Positions 1 to 11,574 of a DNA stretch of 11,574 nt are shown here, piece by piece. Numbering within the stretch: position 1 is the stretch's first letter; each line of letters starts with the position of its first letter. The DNA comes from Prevotellaceae bacterium. Lineage in GTDB: Bacteria; Bacteroidota; Bacteroidia; Bacteroidales; Bacteroidaceae. The translations under genes were made by a program, and so were the position numbers. The stretch lies in assembly GCA_021204165.1 (NCBI GenBank), contig JAJPZU010000112.1:1-11574 (forward strand). Reading direction: 5' to 3'. The notes beneath the pieces were generated by a model that had not been told where the DNA came from, did not search any database, and saw nothing but the letters and a program-made list of their open reading frames with translations.

Positions 1-10
1 AAGTTAGGGG

Positions 11-129
11 AGGTGGCGCGTAGCGACGGAGGAGTCTGTCGAAAACACCCACCAACTACACACGAGGAGTCTGCTGAAAACATCCCGCTAAATATACATG
101 AGTAGTCTGTAAATACACTCACTTAAACA
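11..129. repeat. Left arm of the window-bracketing inverted repeat: 36-nt terminal core (11-46) followed inward by iterated GAGGAGTCTG-centred motifs
   Basis: AGGTGGCGCGTAGCGACGGAGGAGTCTGTCGAAAAC (11-46) equals the reverse complement of 11538-11574 except for one extra G in the right copy. The motif GAGGAGTCTG / GAGTAGTCTG recurs at 29-38, 64-73 and 100-109, each followed by a GAAAACAYCC-like tail. Weaker similarity to the right arm continues to about 129. Confidence 0.85.
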
Positions 130-159
130 AGAAGCATAATATTCCCACACGGAAACAGA

Positions 160-195
160 GGGAAAAGAATCAGGGACACCATCACGATGCCCCTG
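160..195 (-). terminator. Possible intrinsic terminator of the carboxylase operon
   Basis: On the minus strand, CAGGGGC..GTCCCTG (7-bp stem with one mismatch, 171-195) is followed by ATTCTTTTCC. It lies about 30 nt downstream of the stop codon at 227-229. The stem is weak and the T-tract interrupted. Confidence 0.35.
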
Positions 196-226
196 AAAAA
201 CACAATGATTTCCGACAAGTCATACA

Positions 227-1681
227 CTATAAAGGCATGTTGCCATGCTTCTTCGGCGGATTGCTCTGATTCTTGTTACGAGTCATCTCCAGTGCCTGAA
301 TAAGACGTATGCGGGTGTCACACGGCTGTATGATTTCATCAATATAGCCAAGCTGTGCAGCCGGCATAGGATTGGCAAATTTACGTCGGTATTCCTCTAT
401 CGCCGCCGCGCGCTCTTCCGGCGAAGCCTTTCGGTAGAGAATGTTACATGCACCTTCCGCTCCCATCACGGCAATCTCCGCAGTCGGATAAGCTAAATTC
501 ACATCCGCACCGATACATTTGCTGTTCATCACAATGTATGCCCCGCCATAAGCCTTGCGCGTGATGAGTGTGAGCTTCGGTACTGTGGCCTCAGCAAAAG
601 CATACACAATCTTAGCCCCATGACGGATGATGCCGTTGTGCTCCTGATCTGTTCCCGGAAGGAAGCCCGGAACATCCTCCACCGCCACGAGCGGAATATT
701 AAAGCAGTCGCAGAAACGGATAAAGCGGGCAGCCTTGTCGCTTGCGTCAATATCGAGCGCACCGGCAAGGAAGTTTGGCTGATTTGCCACAAAACCCACT
801 GTGCGGCCGGCAAGACGTCCGAATCCTACTACAATGTTCTTGGCAAACTCGGTCATCACCTCGAAGAAATACTGCTGGTCGCATACCGGTTCTATGATAT
901 TGCGTATGTCATACGGCACATTAGGGTCTTCCGGAACCACATTGTCCAGTTCATGGCACACGCGGGTTATCTCATCTGTCACCGGATAGACAGGGGCATC
1001 TTCCATATTATTGGAAGGGATGAATCCAATCAGTTCGCGGATGGTCATCAGAGTCTCTTCCTCATCGCGGCAGACGAAATGGCTCACACCGCTCACACTG
1101 CTATGCGTCATGGCACCTCCGAGTGTCTCCTTGTCAACCGCTTCATTCGTCACGGCACGAACCACGTCCGGACCGGTGACAAACATCTGGCTCTGTCCCT
1201 TCACCATGAGAATGAAATCTGTCAGTGCAGGAGAATAGCACGACCCTCCGGCGCAAGGCCCGAGTATGGCAGAAATCTGCGGAATCACTCCGGATGCCAT
1301 CACGTTTTGCCGGAAGATGTGTGCAAAACCGGTCAGACTTTCCACTCCTTCCTGTATGCGTACACCTCCGGAATCGTTCAGACCGATAATCGGTGCTCCG
1401 TTTTTAAGGGCAAGTTCCTGCACTTTCACAATCTTCTGCGCGTTTGCCGCACTGAGAGAACCTCCCAATACCGCAAAATCAAAAGCATAGACGAAGACAA
1501 TGCGTCCGTCAATCTTGCCGTATCCGGAAATCACACCGTCGCCCTCCACACGCTTCTTGTCCATGCCGAAGTCGTTGCAACGATGCACCACATGCTTGTC
1601 CATTTCCACAAATGTTCCTTTGTCAAGAAGCAAATCTATGCGCTCACGTGCTGTGAGTCTCTGTATCTTATTGTCATTCAT
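227..1681 (-). CDS. Acyl-CoA carboxylase carboxyltransferase subunit (propionyl-CoA carboxylase beta / methylmalonyl-CoA decarboxylase alpha family)
   Basis: 484-aa ORF with family-typical strings LTARERIDLLLD, GDGVISGYGKIDGR, LNDSGGVRIQEG, GPCAGGSCYSPALTDF and MFVTGPDVV, plus a second carboxyltransferase half (PLVAVEDVPGFLPG). Its start overlaps the BCCP stop by 8 nt. Confidence 0.95.
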   Translation of the reverse strand: MNDNKIQRLTARERIDLLLDKGTFVEMDKHVVHRCNDFGMDKKRVEGDGVISGYGKIDGRIVFVYAFDFAVLGGSLSAANAQKIVKVQELALKNGAPIIGLNDSGGVRIQEGVESLTGFAHIFRQNVMASGVIPQISAILGPCAGGSCYSPALTDFILMVKGQSQMFVTGPDVVRAVTNEAVDKETLGGAMTHSSVSGVSHFVCRDEEETLMTIRELIGFIPSNNMEDAPVYPVTDEITRVCHELDNVVPEDPNVPYDIRNIIEPVCDQQYFFEVMTEFAKNIVVGFGRLAGRTVGFVANQPNFLAGALDIDASDKAARFIRFCDCFNIPLVAVEDVPGFLPGTDQEHNGIIRHGAKIVYAFAEATVPKLTLITRKAYGGAYIVMNSKCIGADVNLAYPTAEIAVMGAEGACNILYRKASPEERAAAIEEYRRKFANPMPAAQLGYIDEIIQPCDTRIRLIQALEMTRNKNQSNPPKKHGNMPL

Positions 1682-2192
1682 TGTTTTCGTTCAGTTTTAA
1701 TGTTATCAATGTCTGTCCGACCTTCACACTGTCGCCTTCTGCCACAAGCACAGAAAGCACCTCGCAATCAGCCGCGACCTTATAGTTCGACTGCATCTTC
1801 ATAGCCTCCATAGTCAGTACCGTGTCTCCGGCCTTCAGCTTGTCGCCCTGCTTGCAATACGCTTTTACTATCTTGCACGGCATCGGCGCCGTCACCTGAT
1901 CGCTCTGCACGGCATCCGTCTTTTTCCGCATACGCATGTATTTTGCCTGCGAGTCCAACATGTCAATCTGGTAAGTCGAATAGTTGACATTCACGCGGTA
2001 ATGCTTTCCTGCATCGCTCTTCACCAGCTCTGCCTTGTACGAGTTTCCATTGTGAATAATCGAACATGTTCCGTTTTGCAACATGGCCACATCCACATCA
2101 TAAACTTGTCCGTCTATATCAATCTTCACGTTGTTTCCGTCTTTGCTCAACAGCGTGACATCTACAATCTTGTTTCCAACCTGAATATCCAT
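1674..2192 (-). CDS. Biotin carboxyl carrier protein (biotin/lipoyl attachment domain protein)
   Basis: 172-aa ORF. The C-terminal biotinyl domain carries the biotinylation signature EAMKM (GDTVLTMEAMKMQSNYKV). It sits between the biotin carboxylase and carboxyltransferase genes. Confidence 0.9.
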   Translation of the reverse strand: MDIQVGNKIVDVTLLSKDGNNVKIDIDGQVYDVDVAMLQNGTCSIIHNGNSYKAELVKSDAGKHYRVNVNYSTYQIDMLDSQAKYMRMRKKTDAVQSDQVTAPMPCKIVKAYCKQGDKLKAGDTVLTMEAMKMQSNYKVAADCEVLSVLVAEGDSVKVGQTLITLKLNENNE

Positions 2193-2308
2193 TATAATCG
2201 TTTTTTAGTTTAAGTTCTGCCTGCACATCGTTCATGCGGCTTCAAAATTCCACGAAACCGGACACCATGCGGGCGGCAGGCAGATGGTTGTGCAATCTTA
2301 TCGTACCA

Positions 2309-3835
2309 TTATACTCTCAACACACCCTTCTGCAATCCGAATGTTCTCCAGCGATTGATGGCGGACTGTCCCTGTTTGCATTCAGCCGCCCCACCGGTAT
2401 TTTCCTCCAGATTCATAAGGTAGTCTATGTAGGCGGCAATCACCGCCATCTCTTCGCTCTCGTTCTTGAATCCCGGACGCGGACGCAGACGCTCCGCATT
2501 GCGCTCTATAAAATAGGTGTTGTAGTTTCCTTCACGGAAATCAGGCACATCAATGATGCGGCGCAAGTAGCGTATGTTCGTAGTCAGACCGACAATCTTA
2601 TATTCATACAGCACTCTCCTCATGCGCTCAATGGCATACTGTCTCTCCGTAGCCCAAACGATAAGCTTTCCAATCATCGGATCGTAATGTACGGGAATCT
2701 CATAGCCCTCATATACATAGCTGTCGATTCGGATACCAATGCCGTGAGGCTCTGTGAGCTGAACAATCGTTCCCGGCGAAGGCATGAAGTTATGCTCCGT
2801 ATCCTCCGCACAGATGCGGCACTCTATGGCATGTCCTCTTTGGCGGATATCCTCCTGACGGTAGCCCAGCGGTTGTCCGTCAGCAATAAGAATCTGCTGT
2901 TTCACAAGATCGACGCCGACAACTTCTTCCGTGATAGGATGCTCCACCTGAAGCCGGGTGTTCATTTCAAGGAAATAGAAATGATGGTGCTTATCCACAA
3001 GAAACTCAATGGTGCCGGCACCGATGTAGCCCACCGCTTTTGCCGCAGCCACCGCCTTCTCGCCCATTTCGCGGCGAAGAGTGTCATCAATAAACGGCGA
3101 CGGACTTTCTTCTACTATTTTCTGGTGACGACGCTGCACAGAACATTCGCGGTCGTAAAGATGGATGACATTGCCATGCTTGTCGCCAAGTATCTGAAAC
3201 TCTATGTGGTGAGGCTCCTCGACAAACTTTTCGATATAGACTGTATCATCGCCAAACGAAGCCATCGCCTCGTTCTTTGCCGCATTGTACATCTCTATCA
3301 CATCTTCTTCGCGTTCAATAAGTCTCATGCCTTTTCCGCCGCCACCCATAGAAGCCTTCAGCATCACGGGGAAGCCAATCTTTCGGCACACCTCCAAGGC
3401 TTCCTCGCCACTGCTCAATTGCTCCTGAGTTCCGGGCACAACGGGCACTCCCGCCTTTATCATCTGTATGCGGGCGGAAATCTTGTCGCCCATCAATTCC
3501 ATGGTTTCCGGCTTTGGACCGATGAAGATGATGCCTTCAGCTTCACAACGACGCGCAAACTCGGAATTTTCGGAAAGGAAACCGTATCCCGGGTGAATGG
3601 CATCCACTTTGTGCTTCTTTGCCGCCTCGATAATGTGGTCGATATTCAGGTAGCTGTCTGCCGACGACGCACCGCCGATACACTCTGCTTCGTTTGCAAA
3701 AACGACATGGCGCGACAGACGGTCGGCAGTGCTATAGACAGCCACAGAACGTATGCCCATTTCATAACAAGCACGCATCACCCGAATCGCAATCTCACCG
3801 CGATTGGCAACCAATACTTTTCTTATCATAAACAT
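2309..3835 (-). CDS. accC: Biotin carboxylase (ATP-grasp) subunit of acyl-CoA carboxylase
   Basis: 508-aa ORF with KVLVANRGEIAIRVMRA at the N-terminus, the glycine-rich ATP-grasp loop LKASMGGGGKGMR, and EMNTRLQVEHPITE. M1 or M3 could be the true start. Confidence 0.95.
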   Translation of the reverse strand: MFMIRKVLVANRGEIAIRVMRACYEMGIRSVAVYSTADRLSRHVVFANEAECIGGASSADSYLNIDHIIEAAKKHKVDAIHPGYGFLSENSEFARRCEAEGIIFIGPKPETMELMGDKISARIQMIKAGVPVVPGTQEQLSSGEEALEVCRKIGFPVMLKASMGGGGKGMRLIEREEDVIEMYNAAKNEAMASFGDDTVYIEKFVEEPHHIEFQILGDKHGNVIHLYDRECSVQRRHQKIVEESPSPFIDDTLRREMGEKAVAAAKAVGYIGAGTIEFLVDKHHHFYFLEMNTRLQVEHPITEEVVGVDLVKQQILIADGQPLGYRQEDIRQRGHAIECRICAEDTEHNFMPSPGTIVQLTEPHGIGIRIDSYVYEGYEIPVHYDPMIGKLIVWATERQYAIERMRRVLYEYKIVGLTTNIRYLRRIIDVPDFREGNYNTYFIERNAERLRPRPGFKNESEEMAVIAAYIDYLMNLEENTGGAAECKQGQSAINRWRTFGLQKGVLRV

Positions 3836-4352
3836 CTATATTTGGTTATACACTTTCTTCCATCTCAAAACAAAATATAATACGATATCAGAAAGCACAC
3901 TCCGAGAACCGCATGACAAAGCGGACAACTCACGAAAGAATACATATCCCAAGAATACATGAATACACAAAAAACACCGATATTCCATCCCGGAATCTCA
4001 GCAAAACAGTATTCTCAGTATTTTTCCGGCAGCTCTTATTCCCGAGAGCGGCATCTGAACATCGGCATCGGCAGGTCTTCTGACTTCTCCATTGGCAGCA
4101 CGGCCTTCCCAACCACAATTATTTACAGCCTCACGGCAATAACAAAGGTCAGTGGCACAACATGATGATGTGTTGCCATAAAAAACAGGAGTTACAGCTA
4201 CGGGTATAGTTACAGACTCACACTGTATTCCCTCTTAGTCTGTCCGTCTTTCCTGAGTGCTTCTTCCTGAAGTCCGCCATTCCCGAAATCAGATTAGGCA
4301 AATTCCAGTCTCAACAAGCCTCAAATGAAGAGGACAAGAACCAAATGCGCGG

Positions 4353-4360
4353 CAAAAGTA
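4353..4360 (-). promoter_or_regulatory. Candidate Bacteroidetes-type -7 promoter element (TACTTTTG on the minus strand)
   Basis: Exact match to the TAnnTTTG consensus, read on the minus strand. It lies downstream (in minus-strand sense) of the phased T-tract array and about 515 nt upstream of the accC start. No -33 TTTG is present at the expected spacing. Confidence 0.3.
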
Positions 4361-4424
4361 CACATAAAATCCGAATCCATGCACTTTTTACCATATTTTT
4401 ACTCCAAACATTCTATGAAACTCT

Positions 4425-4512
4425 TGTGTTTTCTCCGGTATTTCCCCTGTGCTTTTCCGGTATTTTCCCGGTGTTCTTCCTGTATTTTTCCTGTATTTTC
4501 CCGGTTTTTTCC
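4425..4512. repeat. Eight tandem 11-bp units (consensus CKGTNTTTTCC), a phased T/A-tract array
   Basis: The units are tgtgttttctc, cggtatttccc, ctgtgcttttc, cggtattttcc, cggtgttcttc, ctgtatttttc, ctgtattttcc and cggttttttcc, in exact 11-bp register. The period is not a multiple of 3, so the repetitive FPVFS-type peptides in the overlapping plus-strand ORFs are artefacts. Confidence 0.85.
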
Positions 4513-4558
4513 ATAAAAAAGCATGGGACATTCCGCTTCTTTCGGAAATGCCCCATGC
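4513..4558 (-). terminator. Rho-independent terminator of the NfeD-like/flotillin operon
   Basis: The minus strand reads GCATGGGGCATTTCCG-aaagaag-CGGAATGTCCCATGC, an approximately 15-bp GC-rich stem with one bulge and one G-U pair. TTTTTTAT follows immediately. The structure starts 21 nt after the flotillin stop codon (4579-4581). Confidence 0.8.
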
Positions 4559-4578
4559 ACCGTTTCTCTTTAGTTTAT

Positions 4579-5955
4579 TCAGTCTTCTACTTCTTCCGCA
4601 TCCACAGCAGGCTCTTCTTTTTTCTTCGCCAGATACTCCGGCAAATTAAGCCCCGCCATATCGAAAAGTTCGTTAAGCGGCGGAACAGACTTCATCAGTC
4701 CGGACACGAAACCGGCTGTAGAGCCTTTTCCGTCTGCACCACCGGCACCATTGTCCCAAACAGTCACATGGTCAATGTTGATACCCTTGACAGCCTCAAC
4801 CTGAGTCTTGACAAGCTCAGGAAGCTTTTCGAGCAGCAACAGCATGTATGCCTTGTTGGCATCTCCTCCGGCAGCCTGAACCATCTTGTCATAACCGGCA
4901 GCCTGCTTCGTCAGCACTTCATACAAACCTTTTGCTTCTGCCTCCATCTTGGCATAAATGGCATCTGCTTCACCCTTTGCATTGACACGCACGCGCTCTG
5001 CTTCCGCCTCCGCTTCGATGATAAGTCGTCTCTTCTCAATCTCCTGCGGAACGAGTACGTTGGCTGTTTCCGTAGAGCGTTCACGTTCTGCACGCGCTTC
5101 CTCAGCCTCGCGTTCTGCCGCGTATGCTTCCTGCAATGCCTTTGCCTGCTGTACTTTTTCTGAGGCTGTGGCTTTACGCTGTGCCTCCGCTTCCTTCTCA
5201 CGGCGATAAGCCTCGGATGCAGCAATGGCAACCTTCGCTTCGTTCTCACCCTTTACGGCTTCCGCATTGGCTTCGGCTGTACGTATGCGGGTTTCTCTCA
5301 CCGCTTCCGCCTTACCGATTTCACCGACTTTATCTTGCTCTGCCACTCTCACTTTTGCCTCATTTATCGCTTTGGCAGCAGCTTCACGTCCGAGAGCCTC
5401 TATATATCCGCTCTCATCTTTTATATCGGTCACGTTCACATTTATCAGACGAAGACCAATCTTTTTCAGTTCCACTTCTACATTGGCAGAAATGCTCTCA
5501 AGAAACTTGTCACGGTCGTTGTTCAGTTCCTCAATACTCATCGTGGCAATTACCAGACGCAACTGTCCGAAAAGAATATCACGCGCCAGTTCCTGTATCT
5601 GTGCAGCACTAAGTCCGAGCAAACGTTCCGCAGCTGCATTCATGCAATCGTGGTCTGTAGATATACCCACAGTGAAGCGGCTTGGCACATCCACACGGAT
5701 GTTCTGTTTGCTGAGCGCATTTGTCAGATTCGCATCAATACTGATTGGTGTAAGGCTAAGATAAGCATAGTCTTCGATTATAGGCCATACGAAAGCACCG
5801 CCGCCATGCACGCAACGTGCCGACGTTTTGCTGCTTTTACTCCCATAAATCACCAAAATTTTGTCCGAAGGACACCGTCTGTAACGATTCACAATGGAAA
5901 CGAACAGCGCAATAGCCACTACAGCGGCAATTACAATAAGATACATAGATTCCAT
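4579..5955 (-). CDS. Flotillin-like SPFH/band-7 family membrane protein (YqiK-like)
   Basis: 458-aa ORF with an N-terminal TM helix (YLIVIAAVVAIALFVSIV), an SPFH-like core, and a long Ala/Glu/Arg-rich coiled-coil (AEREAEEARAERER, IIEAEAEAERVRVNAKGEADA) typical of bacterial flotillins. It is paired with an upstream NfeD-like gene. Confidence 0.9.
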   Translation of the reverse strand: MESMYLIVIAAVVAIALFVSIVNRYRRCPSDKILVIYGSKSSKTSARCVHGGGAFVWPIIEDYAYLSLTPISIDANLTNALSKQNIRVDVPSRFTVGISTDHDCMNAAAERLLGLSAAQIQELARDILFGQLRLVIATMSIEELNNDRDKFLESISANVEVELKKIGLRLINVNVTDIKDESGYIEALGREAAAKAINEAKVRVAEQDKVGEIGKAEAVRETRIRTAEANAEAVKGENEAKVAIAASEAYRREKEAEAQRKATASEKVQQAKALQEAYAAEREAEEARAERERSTETANVLVPQEIEKRRLIIEAEAEAERVRVNAKGEADAIYAKMEAEAKGLYEVLTKQAAGYDKMVQAAGGDANKAYMLLLLEKLPELVKTQVEAVKGINIDHVTVWDNGAGGADGKGSTAGFVSGLMKSVPPLNELFDMAGLNLPEYLAKKKEEPAVDAEEVED

Positions 5956-6039
5956 AATTAATTATTTTAATATCCAACTTTTCAAGATTACAAGACCGGT
6001 TGCCGCATGAAGTGCCCCCTGTCTGAAGAAAGTTTCAAA

Positions 6040-6128
6040 TTCATCTCTCTTGGTCAAAAATTCTCATCCCTTTGGGTCAAAATTTTCATTCCTTTAGTCA
6101 AAAAAATCTCATCCCTTTGGGTCAAAGA
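6040..6128. repeat. Four tandem 21-24-bp direct repeats (TTCTCATCCCTTTGGGTCAAAA-like) in the NfeD-like/flotillin spacer
   Basis: Copies lie at 6040-6060, 6061-6082, 6083-6106 and 6107-6128. Copies 2 and 4 share the exact 20-mer tctcatccctttgggtcaaa (6062-6081 and 6107-6126). Copy 4 overlaps the stop codon of the NfeD-like gene (6122-6124). Confidence 0.85.
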
Positions 6129-6700
6129 TTCTCTACCACCAGCATTTCTCCGCCGACAACATCAGTAATCCGCACCTTGCGCCCTGTGGTTATCGCCTCA
6201 CCCTCTGTAACCGCATCCAGTTCATGCACGGAACCGTTCACACTTATCTGCACTTTTCCTCTGCCGCTCTTCTTCTCCGGAATGCGCAGATAGACATCTG
6301 CCACACGTCCCTTGCAATATTCAATGCGGAAGGCGCCGTTTGCCTCCAGCTTCTTGGTCTGCTTGTAGATAAAGAAGAACATCCACACAAAAAACAAGCC
6401 TACGGCTGCTGCCACGAGTGCCAGCAACACAGCATTACCCATCAGCGAATGCAGACAGACACCTGCCCAGCCGAAGCCCACAAAGAAATTGACAAGGCTC
6501 CTTATAGAGAACAACGACAGTCCTCCTCCCAAATCCATTGTGTCTCCGGCATCAAAATCGACATCTATGTCGCTTGAATCCATTCCGAACAACGTAAGCA
6601 GAAGCTGTATTACAAACACAGCTGACCCGACAAGTGCACAAACCCAGAACACTTGCTGCATAGTTTCAAGTCCACTGAACCAAATTGAAAAACTCTCCAT
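6122..6700 (-). CDS. NfeD/YqiJ-like membrane protein (OB-fold C-terminal tail), partner of the flotillin gene
   Basis: 192-aa ORF with several hydrophobic helices (VFWVCALVGSAVFVIQLLLTLF, LVNFFVGFGWAGVCL, AVLLALVAAAVGLFFVWMFFFIY). The beta-rich C-terminus (GRGKVQISVNGSVHELDAVTEGEAITTGRKVRITDVVGGEMLVV) resembles the NfeD OB domain. The gene order NfeD-then-SPFH is canonical. Confidence 0.8.
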   Translation of the reverse strand: MESFSIWFSGLETMQQVFWVCALVGSAVFVIQLLLTLFGMDSSDIDVDFDAGDTMDLGGGLSLFSIRSLVNFFVGFGWAGVCLHSLMGNAVLLALVAAAVGLFFVWMFFFIYKQTKKLEANGAFRIEYCKGRVADVYLRIPEKKSGRGKVQISVNGSVHELDAVTEGEAITTGRKVRITDVVGGEMLVVENL

Positions 6701-6899
6701 ATTCTAATTAGTTTTACGGTTATATAAATCATATTCTGAAATGATATGTCCACCATCTATTTTACAAAGAGGGAACATCCTTAAAAAAAATAACATTACC
6801 AGACTGCATTTTTCATTAAACACTCTCCTTCTCACTGCATTTTCATAATTCATAAAAGACTCCGATTAATTATTTTAATGATAAATGCCAATCTTATAA

Positions 6900-7580
6900 T
6901 TACCATACATATTGCGATGGATATTTTACTTGCATGAAAGTGAAGCCATGCCCCATTACGCTATGGTGAGAAGTCGTCTGTGCTGTCATATTTGATACAA
7001 TACTGCCAAACACCTGCATATTTGCTCTTGCGTCACCGCGTGAAGCAAGAATGGGTGCATCAGGGACATCGTAATCGCGCCATGCAAATAAGCAGACCTT
7101 TTGGGGATATGTCAAGAGATTTACAGCTGTTGTAGATTCTTGAATCAAAACTTCTATCGATTTAAGCATTTGCTGTCTGGCTTTTGCCCGTTTCCCTTCC
7201 GGGTATTTTCCCGTATTAGGCTCAACATATTTTTCCTCATAACAACACAAGTCACAGAATACAACTTTTTCATGTACCATTCCTGTCTCTGTCATTAATA
7301 AATCACATCGGTCTTTAATATTGGCAGTAGTGCCTGCAAATTGTTCGATATACTTTTCAAAACGAACCACAGCAATTTCCTTGCCATTATTATTCACCTT
7401 CAGAACTTCTTTATTGCATTCATTACGGTAAGCCCTTTCAGGCAATTGCTGACATCGTATGCAACTCTTGGAGTCGGTTTCTGAGAAAGGTTCGCGTATT
7501 CTGTAGAGAGGCACTTCTACTTCTTGTGGATTTATGCCATAATGGAGCGGGAATGCCTTTTTAAGAAAAGATTCTATCAT
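6900..7580 (-). CDS. Hypothetical 226-aa Cys-rich protein, putative effector partner of the upstream ATPase; no family assigned
   Basis: Uninterrupted 226-aa ORF whose ATG overlaps the ATPase stop (ATGA at 7577-7580). It contains CIRC (CxxC) and CDLCC cysteine clusters. Possible catalytic-type strings are LLMTETG, YEEK and WRDYDVPD. I recognise no family signature. Confidence 0.7.
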   Translation of the reverse strand: MIESFLKKAFPLHYGINPQEVEVPLYRIREPFSETDSKSCIRCQQLPERAYRNECNKEVLKVNNNGKEIAVVRFEKYIEQFAGTTANIKDRCDLLMTETGMVHEKVVFCDLCCYEEKYVEPNTGKYPEGKRAKARQQMLKSIEVLIQESTTAVNLLTYPQKVCLFAWRDYDVPDAPILASRGDARANMQVFGSIVSNMTAQTTSHHSVMGHGFTFMQVKYPSQYVW

Positions 7581-8737
7581 ACGTCAAGATTTACAAATTC
7601 ATTATAAATGTGACTCATCAACTCTGAGAGGTCGTAAGTATCTACAATCCACCGTCCGCGTTCATTTTGGACAAGCAAATCTTGTATCTCTCCTTCATAT
7701 ATTCGATAAACAGCCGTGTTAGTCCTGCTCAATTGGGCACGTACTGCATTTGTTTGGTTTAGTAAAACATTCAAGTAGTTAAGAATATACGGACTATGGG
7801 TCGCAAGCATCATATTAATTTCTCGATTTTCATCCGCATGTGTTGCCGACAGCACAATTTCTTCTATGAGTTTGCACTGTGCATCAGGGAACAGACTTAA
7901 CTCAGGTTCTTCAATATGGATATATACTTGTTTCTTCAAATCGCTGGGTTCTGCGACAGCCCGAAACTTGTTCAATCTTTCCATATCATACAGATAGTTC
8001 AGGACAGAGCGCTTGAATGCGTCCTTAAATGAAAAGCCATTTGCGCTGGCATAGTTCTTTACAATCAAAGCGACCGATGCTGACGTTTGAATGCCGGATG
8101 AAGCTTCTCGTAAGTCGATTGGCTCATGACGGCTGTCATTTGGAATGACGGTGTAGCGTGTAGGCTTACCTTTGGGGTGGGTTATCTGAAGCTTCATGCC
8201 TATATAGTCCAACGGTATCTCTTTGTCGTTTGCCGATGCTCTGACAAAATCATTGTTTGTTTCATGAAAATAAAATCCCAAGGTTGCACCTGTGTTTTGG
8301 GATGCCTTTTGCGCCCATGTCGGAATGATGTTTCGGTTTTCAGAGATATAGGACACTTTGTTGAACACCAAATGGTCAGAAGATATAATGGGAAGTCTGC
8401 CTAATTTCTTGTTTTCCATCAAGATGGTGTATTCCGTTTCATCATCCATGACTACACTATACCTAATTACACTTGACGAGTCAAGCATTTTATACATTCC
8501 CGTTTCTTTCATCATCGAATCGAAGCGCATCCTGAAAGGAGAGCTTGTTATTTTTGAATGCTTCAAATAAGAACGGATGTTTGCCATTTTGTACAGATAG
8601 CGCATCATGCTTATCAGCTTCATCAGTGTGCTTTTACCACTTGCGGATTCACCAATCAACACAGTGAATGGCAGAAGGCCAAGGTTCTCAATGTGCTTTA
8701 GCGGACCAATATTTTTAATTGTTATAAATTCCTTCAT
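7577..8737 (-). CDS. Stand-alone ABC/SMC-like ATPase (AAA_15/AAA_21-type), defence-associated architecture
   Basis: Walker A is LIGESASGKSTL, the Walker-B-like strand is VYIHIEEPELSLFP, and the H-loop-like motif is LATHSPYILNYL. The ORF track extends to 8815, but MKEFITIKNIGPL (ATG at 8735-8737) matches the usual N-terminus of this ATPase class, so the 26-aa extension is probably not translated. Confidence 0.88.
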   Translation of the reverse strand: MKEFITIKNIGPLKHIENLGLLPFTVLIGESASGKSTLMKLISMMRYLYKMANIRSYLKHSKITSSPFRMRFDSMMKETGMYKMLDSSSVIRYSVVMDDETEYTILMENKKLGRLPIISSDHLVFNKVSYISENRNIIPTWAQKASQNTGATLGFYFHETNNDFVRASANDKEIPLDYIGMKLQITHPKGKPTRYTVIPNDSRHEPIDLREASSGIQTSASVALIVKNYASANGFSFKDAFKRSVLNYLYDMERLNKFRAVAEPSDLKKQVYIHIEEPELSLFPDAQCKLIEEIVLSATHADENREINMMLATHSPYILNYLNVLLNQTNAVRAQLSRTNTAVYRIYEGEIQDLLVQNERGRWIVDTYDLSELMSHIYNEFVNLDV

Positions 8738-8916
8738 AATAAAGTTTTGTTTTTCAAACAATCTGATAAAGTATGATTTACCCAATAAAGATACTAATTT
8801 GTACTTCAACAGCAAAAAAAATCCTGTATTGTGACGCTAAAAACGTGAATTTATTACAGAAATGGCACTTTGTCATGTCAAATCAGAAGGTGAAGTGTCA
8901 AAACAGGAGATACAAT

Positions 8917-8924
8917 CCAAACTT
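8917..8924 (-). promoter_or_regulatory. Candidate -7 promoter element (TAAGTTTG on the minus strand) upstream of the ATPase cassette
   Basis: Matches TAnnTTTG on the minus strand. It lies in the AT-rich spacer between the ParB-like stop (8957) and the ATPase start, about 180 nt upstream of the ATG at 8737. Motif match only. Confidence 0.25.
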
Positions 8925-8956
8925 ATTGTTGCATGAACATCTGGGGCCAGAGCCGC

Positions 8957-9478
8957 CTAATCCTCCAGCCAGTCCTCCGACAAACTGAAGTCCTTGTCCG
9001 CAAACAAGTCCGCCAGCCCGGAAATCTGCTTCAGCCTCAACAGCTCATCCTTGTCCATGCCGATATTGCGCATAATCCACGCATCCGACATGCCCGCAGA
9101 CGTAAGCTCCGACACGATGTGGCTCATCAGCTCTATCGTGTGCGTACCCCTCGCCCTGTTATGACGTATGGTCGAAGCCATTCTGCACGAAATATCCTTG
9201 TCTATCACCGACACGGGAAGCATCCCCTTCTCCCTGTCATAAATTCGTTTCGATGTCTTCATCACCAGATAGCGGTGGAATCCATCTACAATCTCATACT
9301 TGTCCTCGTCCTTCAAGTAATAGCACACGCAAGGCATGGTGTACCCGTCCTCCCATATCGACAGTTCCAACAGCTTCATCTCCGGAGGAGCCACCATGTT
9401 GGGGTTATAATTGTTCGCCACCACTTTCTCGATAGGCACTGCTATCACATTATATACCGGACTCTTAAAATTTTCCAT
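8957..9478 (-). CDS. ParB/sulfiredoxin-fold domain protein (IbrB-like / DndB-like)
   Basis: 173-aa ORF with ANNYNPN and EIVDGFHRYLV (a ParB-type DGxHR box). Its start overlaps the end of the PAPS-reductase-family gene by 14 nt. Confidence 0.85.
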   Translation of the reverse strand: MENFKSPVYNVIAVPIEKVVANNYNPNMVAPPEMKLLELSIWEDGYTMPCVCYYLKDEDKYEIVDGFHRYLVMKTSKRIYDREKGMLPVSVIDKDISCRMASTIRHNRARGTHTIELMSHIVSELTSAGMSDAWIMRNIGMDKDELLRLKQISGLADLFADKDFSLSEDWLED

Positions 9479-10763
9479 ATTCCAATGCTTTATATTTTCT
9501 CATCACACTTTCTCGTCTGCTCTTCTCATTCTTGGTCAGGGTAAAGCCCATGTACTTACACACATGGTCGTTTCTCAGTATGCAGATGCAGACACGCTTG
9601 AATGTCGGAATCTCCCGAAACTCCGGAATGTCTATGTCGTCAACGTACTCCATCATGACCGGTCTTTTGTTAGTGCGGTATGCCGTGGTCGTCCCAACCG
9701 TAAACTTCACCCCTGCCGCACGCAATTTTTCAATGGTCTCATCGCTCAGACATCCGCCTTTCGTCCTCCAGAATCTCATGCTCACACCTATCTTGTCCAG
9801 ATAATTGCGGCACACCTTCTCCGGCAACGTGTCCAGCAGAAAGTACATGTACTTTTTCCAAGAAAATCCGTGAGGACATTTTATCGACTTCCATCCCATA
9901 GCCGTCGTATTCCCGTAGATGCCGGAAAAATTGACACCATTGACACGGCTGACCATCCGCCCCCACATGTCGGGGTCTATCGCCCGATAGACACTCAGCG
10001 TAGGTATGGCATGAGAAATGAACGGACTTGCCACCCGCTGCCGCCCAATCGGAATGCCCGCACGCGAATAAAGGTCATAAAGCGGATTATAAGTCCATCC
10101 GAATTTTCCGTTTGCCGTCCAGATGTCAGATGTTTTCCAGTCATAAAGCGGATAAGCGTTATACACATGTGCAGCAAGCTTATGTGTCCATTTGTAATGC
10201 GAAAGCCGCCGGTAGTTCTTGGCATTGTGTATGGCCGTCCACCGGTTAAAACTCTCCTGCGTCCTTATGCCTACAAGACAACATATACGTTCACATTTCT
10301 TCCGGTTGCGCAGCCAAGGGGCGAAAAGATACTGGAAGTCATAGTCCCACAAGGCATCAGTGAAGAAATTGAAATCGGCTGCCGTATAAGCCCCCTCAGG
10401 CATTTCCCTCACCCATATATCCTTCTCCGATTCTCCCCAAGGTCTCCAATACGACTGGTGCATGGATGTACAGGTCATGACTTTGAAGGGCACGCAACAA
10501 TGGTACACCTCCAGAATGTCGCGATTCTCCGACAGGGTACGGCGCACATACTCCGTGGTCTGCCGGTACTGCACCTCGTAGTCCATGTGGAACACACCCA
10601 GCTTACGTCCCGGAGCATACCTCCGTATATAGTCTATGCACAGATTCAACAACACTCCGCTGTCCTTGCCACCCGAAAACGAGACATACACATAATCGAA
10701 ATAATCGAATATGATCTTCAGCCTCCTTTGCACTGCTTCATAAACATCAAGTTGCCTAATCAT
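9465..10763 (-). CDS. Phosphoadenosine-phosphosulfate (PAPS) reductase-family PP-loop protein with extended C-terminal domain (IbrA-like / DndC-like)
   Basis: 432-aa ORF with the PP-loop ATP-pyrophosphatase motif VSFSGGKDSGVLL near the N-terminus. The long Trp/Tyr-rich C-terminal extension resembles IbrA-type proteins. It is paired with a ParB-like gene. Confidence 0.88.
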   Translation of the reverse strand: MIRQLDVYEAVQRRLKIIFDYFDYVYVSFSGGKDSGVLLNLCIDYIRRYAPGRKLGVFHMDYEVQYRQTTEYVRRTLSENRDILEVYHCCVPFKVMTCTSMHQSYWRPWGESEKDIWVREMPEGAYTAADFNFFTDALWDYDFQYLFAPWLRNRKKCERICCLVGIRTQESFNRWTAIHNAKNYRRLSHYKWTHKLAAHVYNAYPLYDWKTSDIWTANGKFGWTYNPLYDLYSRAGIPIGRQRVASPFISHAIPTLSVYRAIDPDMWGRMVSRVNGVNFSGIYGNTTAMGWKSIKCPHGFSWKKYMYFLLDTLPEKVCRNYLDKIGVSMRFWRTKGGCLSDETIEKLRAAGVKFTVGTTTAYRTNKRPVMMEYVDDIDIPEFREIPTFKRVCICILRNDHVCKYMGFTLTKNEKSRRESVMRKYKALEYGKF

Positions 10764-11164
10764 TCCTTACGTCCTCCGGCATATACCATCTTGTCATAAT
10801 TCTTCCATTCCCTATGTGTCCTGAAGCCGTTGCGTGCAAAGTCAGCCACATGACGCTTGTGTACGACTGCGGTCAGCACAGTCCTGCTCACCGACTCCGC
10901 CACCACCCTGTCGAGCAGAGCATCAATGAGCAAAGAATCGTCGCCCTTGATATAATAATTGTCAATACAGGCTTCACGCTCTTTCTCCTTTACCGGAATG
11001 AATCCGATTACCTCCTTTTTCTCTATGGCCACATACCATTTGTGATGACGGGAGGTCTTGAAGGGATAATTGTTGTTGAGCCTCAACACTGCCGCATTCA
11101 TCACCAGCGGTGCCACCAGCTCATAAAGGCGGGAAGATGTGCCTTCTAAAATCTCAATATTCAT
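10760..11164 (-). CDS. Small GNAT-like (acetyltransferase-fold) protein, function unknown
   Basis: 134-aa ORF whose stop overlaps the next start (ATGA at 10760-10763). The C-terminal VADFARNGFR resembles the GNAT motif-B region, but the usual R/QxxGxG/A acetyl-CoA loop is not evident. The fold call is therefore tentative. Confidence 0.55.
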   Translation of the reverse strand: MNIEILEGTSSRLYELVAPLVMNAAVLRLNNNYPFKTSRHHKWYVAIEKKEVIGFIPVKEKEREACIDNYYIKGDDSLLIDALLDRVVAESVSRTVLTAVVHKRHVADFARNGFRTHREWKNYDKMVYAGGRKE

Positions 11165-11312
11165 AAAAACAGTCTTTTTGATTCTTGCCTATCCCGACTT
11201 CCGAATCATGAGAGTCTCGGTCTTATAAAGAAGATACATCAGTTGCCACATCCGTAATCTATAAACAGCAGACATCATGAACCATCAAAGTCAAGTAATG
11301 CAATAAACTATG

Positions 11313-11320
11313 CAAAAGTA
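11313..11320 (-). promoter_or_regulatory. Candidate -7 promoter element (TACTTTTG on the minus strand) for the GNAT-like/PAPS-reductase/ParB operon
   Basis: Exact TAnnTTTG match on the minus strand, about 150 nt upstream of the first gene of the operon (ATG at 11162-11164). No other gene lies between. No -33 element is seen. Confidence 0.35.
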
Positions 11321-11424
11321 CGACAAATACCTTTTTTATTCTACCCGATGTCATATTTTTTACAAGAAGAATACTTAGATACTGTTTTTTAGAAGCCGTT
11401 TGTTTAAATGAATGTATTCAACAA

Positions 11425-11574
11425 TTTTAAGCTTGTCTATTTAACGGACTCCTCATGTGTATTTAGTGGAATGTTTTTATATTTGGTGGGGTGTTCTCGG
11501 CAGACTCCTCATGTGTGAATTGTATGTGTTAGCAGACGTTTTCGACAGACTCCTCCGTCGCTACCGCGCCACCT
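11425..11574. repeat. Right arm of the window-bracketing inverted repeat: 37-nt terminal core (11538-11574) plus three inverted iterations of the GAGGAGTCTG motif
   Basis: CAGACTCCTC / CGGACTCCTC occurs at 11546-11555, 11501-11510 and 11445-11454. The reverse complement of 11425-11457 (catgaggagtccgttaaatagacaagcttaaaa) aligns with the left arm at 97-129. The core ends exactly at the last base of the window. Confidence 0.85.

Follow-up and report, generated by a model that had tools for sequence, protein, structure and literature searches.

At both ends of the window, as we call the whole 11,574-nucleotide stretch of DNA analysed here, lie inverted repeats, and between them lie ten genes. The question raised by this arrangement is whether the repeats delimit a mobile or invertible cassette or whether they mark the points at which an assembly broke. 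An earlier note on this DNA had offered three readings, namely (a) a large non-autonomous, mobile-insertion-cassette-like element mobilised in trans, (b) a segment inverted by a recombinase encoded elsewhere and (c) a contig that simply broke in two copies, of opposite orientation, of a multicopy repeat or IS end, which it regarded as the most conservative of the three.

Inverted repeats at the window ends

The terminal inverted repeats that the note had claimed are real. A perfect inverted core of 27 nt, GTAGCGACGGAGGAGTCTGTCGAAAAC, occupies positions 20-46 on the left and 11538-11564 on the right of the 11.5-kb window; by an arithmetic estimate, the chance expectation for such a pair in 11.6 kb is ~4e-9. 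Each arm carries three direct sub-repeats of the GAGGAGTCTG..GAAAAC type (consensus GAGGAGTCTGyyGAAAAC), starting at 29, 64 and 100 in the left arm and, on the minus strand, at 11555, 11510 and 11454 in the right arm. Their spacing is unequal, 35/36 nt in the left arm vs 45/56 nt in the right arm, and four copies matching within 3 mismatches were observed as compared to 0.01 expected from shuffles. The limits of the repeat, which had been placed at 11 and 11574, needed correction: an outer AGGTGGCGCG is indeed found there (11-20 and 11565-11574, with a 1-nt indel between the two ends), but the left arm begins at base 1, and alignment to complete copies extends both arms inward beyond the core, to ~139 on the left and ~11393 on the right. 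Bases 1-10 (AAGTTAGGGG) are part of the repeat family too: in the conserved hairpin CCTCCCCTAAGTTAGGGGAGG they make up the loop and the right-hand stem, and bases 1-50 are 93-96% identical to more than 40 family copies when aligned from base 1. The right arm is cut 10 nt earlier by the contig end. The features of the two arms, each of which is one half of a repeat unit, are as follows.

1..139, plus strand: right half of a palindromic interspersed repeat unit, truncated at the contig start (inverted and direct repeats, family alignment; inner boundary approximate)
1-13, plus strand: hairpin remnant in the left arm (alignment to complete copies)
12-28, plus strand: outer block GGTGGCGCGTAGCGACG in the left arm (sequence)
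29-46, 64-81 and 100-117, plus strand: left-arm sub-repeats (direct repeats)
about 120-139, plus strand: TTAAACAAGAAGC-like terminal motif of the left arm (alignment)
11393..11574, minus strand: left half of a repeat unit, cut ~10 nt before the hairpin centre by the contig end (inner boundary approximate)
11556-11573, minus strand: outer block in the right arm (repeat comparison)
11538-11555, 11493-11510 and 11437-11454, minus strand: right-arm sub-repeats (direct repeats)
about 11393-11416, minus strand: terminal motif of the right arm (alignment)

Architecture and copy number of the complete unit

The exact 27-mer core proved too strict for finding further copies, giving 0 matches in species-representative genomes and 0 in viral contigs, and shorter 17/18-mers were used instead. 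Inside contigs, the 16/17-mer core occurs only as convergent (-)(+) pairs, for example in contigs L019, L025, L027, L033 (twice) and L034. Across all fetched loci, contigs of related gut Bacteroidales contain 42 such complete units. In each, an arm(-) is joined through a hairpin or centre to an arm(+), the arms being 3-167 nt apart, and every arm contains the block GGTGGCGCGnnAGCGACGGAGGAGTCTGT with 1-4 sub-repeats on its outward side. In the window this order is reversed, (+) standing at the start and (-) at the end. Copies share a conserved centre between their arms (L019 vs L025) but are unrelated in what lies beyond the arms, which makes the compact unit the discrete entity that is repeated. 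Folding of two units gave -88.3 kcal/mol (z = -17.2) and -60.6 kcal/mol (z = -17.0), the whole unit forming one long, nearly perfect hairpin with stems of up to ~50 bp. The small hairpin CGACGGA-GGAG-TCTGTCG is preceded by GTAG in the window and in rodent-gut copies, while the tetranucleotide before the core in most copies of MAG CAZKOB01 is GAAG, GCAG or CTTG, not GTAG. Neither the units nor an 850-nt companion repeat matched an Rfam family.

Species-representative genomes hold at least 75 stretches matching the repeat. Among the matches listed, the single MAG CAZKOB01 (GCA_964554265.1) accounts for at least ~38 to more than 40 stretches, further copies lie in the MAGs JAGASY01 and JAMPEL01, and Alistipes-labelled MAGs contain less typical, mostly unpaired copies. 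One rodent gut co-assembly has seven contigs with the repeat. The complete unit found no match in the plasmid collection, and in viral contigs the core hairpin turned up once, in isolation and lacking the architecture of the unit. The units are intergenic, with 0 inside an ORF, and are flanked by tandem genes in 15 cases, convergent genes in 8 and divergent genes in 2. Their neighbours are housekeeping genes: the 103 ORFs within 1.5 kb of units include AsnA, FolE, MiaA, IspF, Pth, PurE and others. These ORFs matched 111 Pfam families, and the 25 most frequent of them include neither a transposase near the units nor a RAYT gene adjoining any unit. Likewise, no (-)...(+) pair enclosing 0.7-5 kb with a transposase was present in the fetched loci. 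Inter-unit segments elsewhere hold ordinary genes, such as OmpH together with glutamate racemase, a DUF5128 protein, or a heparinase.

Recurrent contig breaks within the repeat

At least 10 other contigs begin 23-43 nt before a (+) core and at least 7 others end shortly after a (-) core, which together reproduce the geometry of the window. For the window's own genome, five Logan contigs from four runs all stop inside the arms, and exact-protein look-ups of the terminal genes found none among these five that reaches past the window ends. Judging from the recurrent contig breaks and from the related MAGs, the repeat should be multicopy in this genome as well. Because the unit is both multicopy and palindromic, short-read de Bruijn assembly would be expected to stop near its centre. 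A contig lying between two neighbouring units would then start with a (+) half and end with a (-) half and, given that the unit itself is a palindrome, would automatically be bracketed by inverted repeats. In this manner, any genes located between two half-units could seem to be framed by terminal inverted repeats.

Both window ends thus very probably fall within copies of a high-copy palindromic intergenic repeat, and the ten genes would represent an ordinary chromosomal stretch. Reading (c) is supported by the compactness of the units, their high copy number, the recurrent breaks and the continuing synteny in a relative described below. The part of it that stood is the assembly break in a multicopy repeat; the arms, however, are not two opposite copies of an IS end but the right and left halves of a unit. 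The case carries a warning: inverted repeats capping a contig do not count as evidence for a mobile or invertible cassette where the repeat itself is a multicopy palindrome.

Genes between the arms

All ten ORFs of the window lie on the minus strand, and GC skew is consistently negative. As the earlier note had stated, the gene set contains no recombinase, relaxase or tRNA, a point borne out by ORF, tRNA and domain searches: no tRNA was found in the window, no transposase, integrase or relaxase domain was detected in the ten ORFs by Pfam, NCBIfam, PHROGs or PADLOC, and a serine or tyrosine recombinase domain is absent from all ten. Relaxed thresholds (Pfam, PHROGs, PADLOC) likewise revealed no hidden recombinase in the ORFs of 134, 173, 192 and 226 aa. 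The genes and the associated riboswitch are listed below.

227..3835, minus strand: acyl-CoA carboxylase operon (Pfam and NCBIfam; syntenic with MAG contig L033)
227-1681, minus strand: carboxyltransferase (Pfam, NCBIfam)
1674-2192, minus strand: biotin carboxyl carrier protein (Pfam, NCBIfam)
2309-3835, minus strand: biotin carboxylase (Pfam, NCBIfam)
4053..4296, minus strand: cobalamin riboswitch aptamer upstream of the carboxylase operon (RF00174, 71.6 bits)
4579-5955, minus strand: flotillin (SPFH) (Pfam/NCBIfam; adjoins the carboxylase operon in L033 too)
6122-6700, minus strand: 192-aa gene, weakly NfeD-like (relaxed profile match; kept near the carboxylase operon in L033)
6900-7580, minus strand: 226-aa ORF, no assignment from Pfam, NCBIfam, PHROGs or PADLOC
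7577-8815, minus strand: AAA_21 ATPase (profile searches)
8957-9478, minus strand: ParB-like protein (profile searches)
9465-10763, minus strand: PAPS-reductase/DUF3440 protein (profile searches)
10760-11164, minus strand: 134-aa ORF, no assignment from Pfam, NCBIfam, PHROGs or PADLOC

The interval 6900..11164 comprises accessory genes, defence-like ones among them, and GC content is low (0.36-0.43) over 6500-9000. The acyl-CoA carboxylase operon is ordinary chromosomal cargo between two repeat units and lies outside the repeat; this housekeeping operon is not carried by a transposon.

Synteny in a related MAG and alternative explanations

The closest MAG contig, L033, encodes a carboxyltransferase with 95% amino acid identity, at ~78% identity on the DNA level. 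It has in common with the window a block of the 192-aa gene, flotillin, the riboswitch (RF00174 at 79.6 bits) and the carboxylase operon, and it has other repeats where the window carries the accessory genes. A complete unit is located 81 nt past the carboxyltransferase stop, beyond which follow a heparinase II/III gene, another unit, thioredoxin and TyrRS. In the synteny comparison proposed in the earlier note, gene order in L033 continues past the repeat, and the 11.5-kb block is not kept as a unit, this continuity being seen in a different species rather than in the window's own genome. The best homologues of the L033 heparinase (L114-L116, 87% identity) belong to other organisms, in which the synteny differs and the unit is absent. 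The thioredoxin-heparinase intergenic region spans 1.5 kb with a unit in L033 vs 218-238 nt without one in L114 and L115; aligning these intergenic sequences, which have diverged too far for an insertion point to be mapped, revealed no base-precise empty site or target duplication.

The comparison with L033 also bears on the reading that the 11.3-kb interval is invertible by homologous or site-specific recombination between the flanking units, with the recombinase encoded elsewhere. Any two units share at least 27-50 nt of inverted sequence and could in principle recombine, and in the unit next to the carboxyltransferase, the arm with multiple sub-repeats faces the gene in the window but points away from it in L033. 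However, this arm difference lies between species at ~78% DNA identity, the alternative junction occurs in no contig, the ten ORFs include no recombinase gene, and their placement on a single strand, together with the uniform skew, also speaks against inversion, which we consider improbable.

The evidence on unit architecture makes it very unlikely that the block is a mobile-insertion-cassette-like transposon mobilised in trans, whose arms would be ends with three transposase-binding sub-repeats each. Terminal inverted repeats with multiple, asymmetrically spaced sub-repeats would fit such an element, as would the accessory defence-like genes inside and the fact that all assemblies stop at the arms. 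Yet in the 42 complete copies the arms face each other across a conserved centre of 3-167 nt, and therefore the outward side of the window's arms is unit interior and not target DNA. With dozens of units per genome, moreover, this reading would turn each inter-unit segment into a transposon, whereas housekeeping genes are found there. The core carboxylase operon inside the block argues in the same direction, as does L033, in which the chromosome continues and only part of the block is present, with different borders. Reading (a) is contradicted by these data. Mobile insertion cassettes and composite transposons share with the window inverted repeats that end a gene set lacking a transposase, but the window's repeats are halves of separate compact units pointing away from the genes, and its block is not conserved as one unit in the closest relative.

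Superficially, the three unevenly spaced sub-repeats per arm resemble the transposase-binding arrays of Tn7-/Mu-type ends. Ends of this type were rejected, there being no transposase inside the window and the arms pairing across tiny centres elsewhere; copy number, convergent pairs and housekeeping context stand against Tn7/Mu-like ends as well as attP-like arm sites, the ITR of a linear replicon and invertible promoters. Finally, joining the right end to the left end rebuilds a single unit minus its centre, as expected of a small circular or linear extrachromosomal molecule opened or ended by the assembler at one palindromic, origin- or telomere-resolution-like unit, but this is hardly credible given that the window has no replication, partition, polymerase or protelomerase gene, that the segment from the 192-aa gene to the carboxylase, with flotillin and the riboswitch, has the order seen on a chromosomal contig running to TyrRS, and that the unit is absent from the plasmid collection, with one isolated core match in viral contigs. 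We are therefore confident in regarding the window as a contig from the chromosome of an uncultured, Prevotella-like member of the Bacteroidales, its ten genes not forming a repeat-defined cassette.

Relation to known repeat families

High-copy REPIN/MITE-like palindromes are well studied in Proteobacteria; to our knowledge, they have been little described in gut Bacteroidales, and we found no published description of the present repeat. REPs are repetitive extragenic palindromes that, with their inverted doublets (REPINs), are mobilised by RAYT tyrosine transposases, and their high copy number and strictly extragenic location are shared by the present repeat (PMC3116915, PMC3733652). Further likenesses are the two inverted short palindromic modules with a spacer, the whole folding as a long hairpin, the location mostly between tandem or convergent genes, and the GTAG before the small hairpin in the window and the rodent-gut copies. 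As in REPINs, high-copy inverted doublets form one hairpin (42 pairs; z about -17) and are extragenic and downstream-enriched (none in an ORF; 15 tandem, 8 convergent, 2 divergent). In contrast to REP/REPIN sequences, whose palindrome has a conserved unpaired GTAG (or CGTC) tag at one end, the units show no conserved GTAG (mostly GAAG, GCAG and CTTG in CAZKOB01), have longer arms carrying 1-4 additional sub-repeats and modular, nested centres, and occur in Bacteroidales and not in Proteobacteria.

The unit is also, as MITEs are, a small non-coding multicopy element with terminal inverted repeats; no parent IS or target-site duplication for a MITE assignment was identified in the fetched loci. 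One such MITE, 'BrickBuilt' from Porphyromonas gingivalis, is a minisatellite of 23 nt that has small inverted ends and ~19 copies per genome (PMC4596501). It resembles the present repeat in being non-coding, intergenic and multicopy in Bacteroidales, with inverted-repeat ends and a variable number of short tandem sub-units. By description, the present repeat is set apart, as its inverted arms make up most of the unit and its sub-repeats lie 35-56 nt apart. In the loci compared, we found no transposase, target-site duplication or base-precise empty site for the unit. We consider it somewhat more likely than not that the units spread as non-autonomous, REPIN/MITE-like mobile DNA via a transposase encoded elsewhere. 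More tentatively, they may be previously undescribed, self-nesting REPIN-like mobile palindromes of uncultured gut Prevotellaceae/Bacteroidaceae, spread by a probably single-copy transposase to dozens to hundreds of intergenic sites. If so, the units would be large enough to affect how transcription ends, genomes rearrange and assemblies fragment in these lineages. The repeat family accounts for the heavy fragmentation of their MAGs, and finding the mobilising enzyme would carry a host-element relationship of the REPIN-RAYT type to another phylum. We rate the interest of the repeat family as modest, the 11.5-kb finding itself being mainly cautionary.

BIMEs of E. coli and Correia elements of Neisseria are mosaics of variously combined palindromic blocks, intergenic and with hairpin-forming transcripts, and Correia elements are further marked by a defined TA duplication and by inverted repeats of 26 nt, two features that set them apart from the present units. 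The units resemble both in their modular palindromic make-up, intergenic location and hairpin formation, sequences and hosts being unrelated. Because of where they sit, many units may act as 3' hairpins, with a putative terminator- or mRNA-stabiliser-like role.

The inverted repeats at the window ends

The earlier note had described inverted repeats running from base 11 to the last base of the window, and this was borne out: each arm holds a perfect 27-nt core, extended outward by AGGTGGCGCG with one single-base indel, so as to reach base 11 and the last base, 11574. The repeat does start further out on the left, since bases 1-10 also belong to it, representing the loop and right stem of the family hairpin in a CCCC/GGGG variant. 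In rodent-gut copies, the hairpin CCTCCTCTAAGTTAGAGGAGG precedes the core. Each arm carries three direct sub-repeats (consensus GAGGAGTCTGyyGAAAAC), and copies within three mismatches number 4 in the window as compared to 0.01 expected from shuffles.

Repeat features of the window ends
1-10, hairpin loop and right stem (AAGTTAGGGG)
20-46, 27-nt core, (+) arm
29, 64 and 100 (starts), sub-repeats of the left arm, spacing 35/36 nt
11538-11564, 27-nt core, (-) arm
11555, 11510 and 11454 (starts), minus strand, sub-repeats of the right arm, spacing 45/56 nt

A search with an 18-mer from the core recovered true relatives only in a rodent-gut co-assembly. Internal to contigs, the repeat is always paired, with a (+) copy lying a short way beyond each (-) copy, as in the comparison loci L019 (11206/11358) and L025 (2291/2445). 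The ~70-nt centre between the arms is kept between these two loci and the DNA outside the arms is unrelated, indicating that the repeated entity is a compact palindromic unit composed of arm(-), hairpin, centre, hairpin and arm(+). All fetched loci together contain 42 convergent pairs, whose arms are separated by 3-167 nt (modes 117, 133 and 152). The unit interiors are modular and nested. Units of the L078 type form one perfect palindrome, others have two hairpin copies flanking a centre with its own inverted ends, and further units contain a second palindromic module, AAGCTCCCCAATTGC...GCAATTGGGGAGCTT; the number of sub-repeats per arm ranges from one to four. Folded as single strands, the complete units of L049 and L078 yielded very long hairpins (-88.3 kcal/mol, z = -17.2, and -60.6 kcal/mol, z = -17.0, respectively).

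Contig ends inside the repeat

The order of the arms in the window, (+) first and (-) last, is opposite to that of the internal units. Thus, the window opens on the right half of a unit and closes on the left half of a different one, and its genes lie outside the repeat units. Other assemblies share this geometry, with at least 10 contigs beginning 23-43 nt before the (+) core and at least 7 ending just after the (-) core, all breaks falling inside the hairpin/centre region. Extension past both ends, as proposed in the earlier note, was run with Logan contigs, which include assemblies of the window's own genome: all five own-genome contigs with the terminal genes (four sequencing runs) stop inside the arms, and none of the five reaches the flank beyond. 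Given how such assemblers work, a multicopy long palindrome, whose arms share k-mers on opposite strands, would represent a dead end in the de Bruijn graph. Because the unit is palindromic and multicopy, any contig between two neighbouring units should seem to have terminal inverted repeats. The bracket around the window is very probably an assembly consequence of this high-copy repeat. A break in a multicopy repeat, the most conservative of the options raised previously, was thus the right reading in light of the convergent units and the recurrent breaks in other and own assemblies, except that the arms are halves of palindromic units and not an IS end present twice. The inverted repeats do exist, but the genes that they bracket do not form a biological unit. 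The bracket is of low interest, and the repeat family is a modest lead.

Gene content and gene order past the repeat

Ten ORFs lie between the arms. Domain searches (Pfam, NCBIfam, PHROGs and PADLOC, permissive thresholds included) revealed no transposase, integrase or relaxase among them and the window contains no tRNA, confirming the gene count and the absences reported from the sequence alone.

ORFs between the arms
minus strand, 134-aa ORF, unknown
minus strand, PAPS-reductase/DUF3440 protein
minus strand, ParB-like protein
minus strand, AAA_21 ATPase
minus strand, 226-aa ORF, unknown
minus strand, 192-aa protein, weakly NfeD-like
minus strand, flotillin
minus strand, biotin carboxylase, biotin carboxyl carrier protein (BCCP) and carboxyltransferase

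The closest relative, locus L033 from the repeat-rich MAG GCA_964554265.1, has in common with the window the order 192-aa gene, flotillin, cobalamin riboswitch and three carboxylase genes, the carboxyltransferase being 95% identical in protein and ~78% in DNA. In L033, a complete unit lies 81 nt past the carboxyltransferase stop, at the position of the window's left arm, and beyond it come a gene for heparinase II/III, another unit, and the thioredoxin and tyrosyl-tRNA synthetase genes. In this relative, gene order thus runs on beyond the repeat, an outcome that the earlier note had named as refuting its bracketed gene set. Inter-unit intervals elsewhere also hold ordinary, mutually unrelated genes (L094, OmpH and glutamate racemase; L027, a DUF5128 protein; L033, heparinase). 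A total of 103 ORFs lie no more than 1.5 kb from units; those that could be identified are housekeeping genes (AsnA, GTP cyclohydrolase I, MiaA, MltG, IspF, Pth, PurE and others), and the 25 most frequent families listed for them include no transposase. All units fall outside ORFs, and the genes on either side of them are arranged in tandem (15), convergently (8) or divergently (2), the distribution described for REP elements (PMC3733652).

A small replicon, circular or linear, that carries a single unit is an unlikely reading of the window: its synteny is chromosomal, it has no replication genes, and the unit did not turn up in the plasmid collection or in viral contigs, which yielded only one isolated match to the core. 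Inversion of the segment by recombination between flanking units is improbable and found no support: the window encodes no recombinase, no contig shows the alternative junction, and strand and GC skew do not change from gene to gene. A large mobile-insertion-cassette-like element spanning the window, the first option of the earlier note, is contradicted by the convergent pairing of the arms, the conserved centre where target DNA would have to be, the housekeeping genes in other inter-unit segments and the lack of conservation of the block as such in L033.

Nature and spread of the repeat family

When one genome per species was scanned with a 17-mer, at least 75 stretches matched. Among the matches listed, ~38 stretches fall in GCA_964554265.1 (contigs CAZKOB01) and others in the Bacteroidaceae MAG JAGASY01, the MAG JAMPEL01 and Alistipes-labelled MAGs, the latter with less typical, mostly unpaired copies; a handful of single matches in Actinobacteria and other unrelated lineages is expected by chance.

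The repeat is most likely a non-autonomous REPIN/MITE-type element, whose mobilisation in trans we infer. Such an element would fit the dozens of copies that a genome can hold, the recurrence of the core across MAG lineages of rodent and ruminant guts, the variable modular interiors, and a unit in a 1.5-kb intergenic region of L033 that in relatives measures 218-238 nt and lacks the unit. For the units, we found no transposase, target duplication or base-precise empty site. Like a REPIN, the unit pairs a small palindromic module with its inverted copy, forms a long hairpin, and is extragenic and high-copy (PMC3116915, PMC3733652). Its GTAG tag varies among copies and no RAYT gene was seen near units, so that REPIN membership is not established. 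A further resemblance is to MITEs that contain internal repeat arrays, for example BrickBuilt of Porphyromonas gingivalis (PMC4596501), though no target duplication or parent IS was found for the unit. Our literature search turned up no account of a comparable family from Prevotella or Bacteroidales, which is weak evidence for its novelty. The position of the units hints at a possible secondary role as 3' hairpins in termination or RNA stabilisation.

Further features of the window and companion repeats

A cobalamin riboswitch (RF00174, 4053-4296, minus strand, 71.6 bits) lies upstream of the biotin carboxylase/BCCP/carboxyltransferase operon; it is kept in L033 (4678-4933, 79.6 bits) and absent upstream of the same operon in the Prevotella MAG contigs L035 and L036. 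An acyl-CoA carboxylase operon under B12 control is unusual. Between the riboswitch and the flotillin terminator hairpin (~4515-4560), positions 4425-4512 comprise ~8 tandem 11-nt units (minus strand GGAAAATACMG-like, phased A-tracts), which may be a stretch of curved DNA ahead of the operon promoter, or else a variable-number repeat. A 23-nt unit, TCATCCCTTTGGGTCAAAAATTC, is repeated four times in tandem at 6041-6133, where it fills the spacer that separates flotillin from the 192-aa gene and extends into the 3' end of the latter; in L033, the orthologous spacer is only ~60 nt long. A low-GC islet (6900-8815, minus strand, GC 0.36-0.43 vs ~0.5 elsewhere), absent from L033, encodes the AAA_21 ATPase (best PADLOC match PDC-M29A, 2e-26) and, with a 4-nt overlap, the 226-aa ORF of no detectable family, which together look like a candidate two-gene defence module. 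At 8957-11164 (minus strand), the 432-aa PAPS-reductase/DUF3440 protein and the 173-aa ParB-like protein form an IbrA/IbrB-like pair (phrog_2302 and phrog_2159), preceded by the overlapping 134-aa ORF, which matched no family.

GCA_964554265.1 contains a second, much longer non-coding repeat (~730-860 nt, 78-86% identity, 82-nt internal palindrome), of which the fetched loci contain at least 29 copies (L033 202-1019, 3867-4582, 11812-12626 and 15061-15635; also L039-L110, CAZKOB01); at many units it directly abuts one of the arms. It has no Rfam match and does not occur in the window. At window 4568-4597, just after the flotillin stop codon, the Logan contigs L001 and L005, both from one run, share exactly 30 nt (k-1), which indicates a graph branch. 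Strains may differ in this intergenic region, whose L033 counterpart holds an 850-nt repeat copy. A short repeat, TTGACAAAATGATATTTTCGC..., is found at the ends of unrelated Logan contigs (L115 1-30 and 10660-10685; L116 end) and beside several units (L027 ~850-900; L094 ~3200-3250; L056), and is probably a further multicopy element breaking assemblies in these genomes. In the IMG/VR viral contig L117, the small hairpin CGACGGAGGAGTCTGTCG appears once (2241-2257), either as a relative or by chance; no other part of the unit accompanies it, and a ~60-nt sequence flanks it in direct orientation on both sides.
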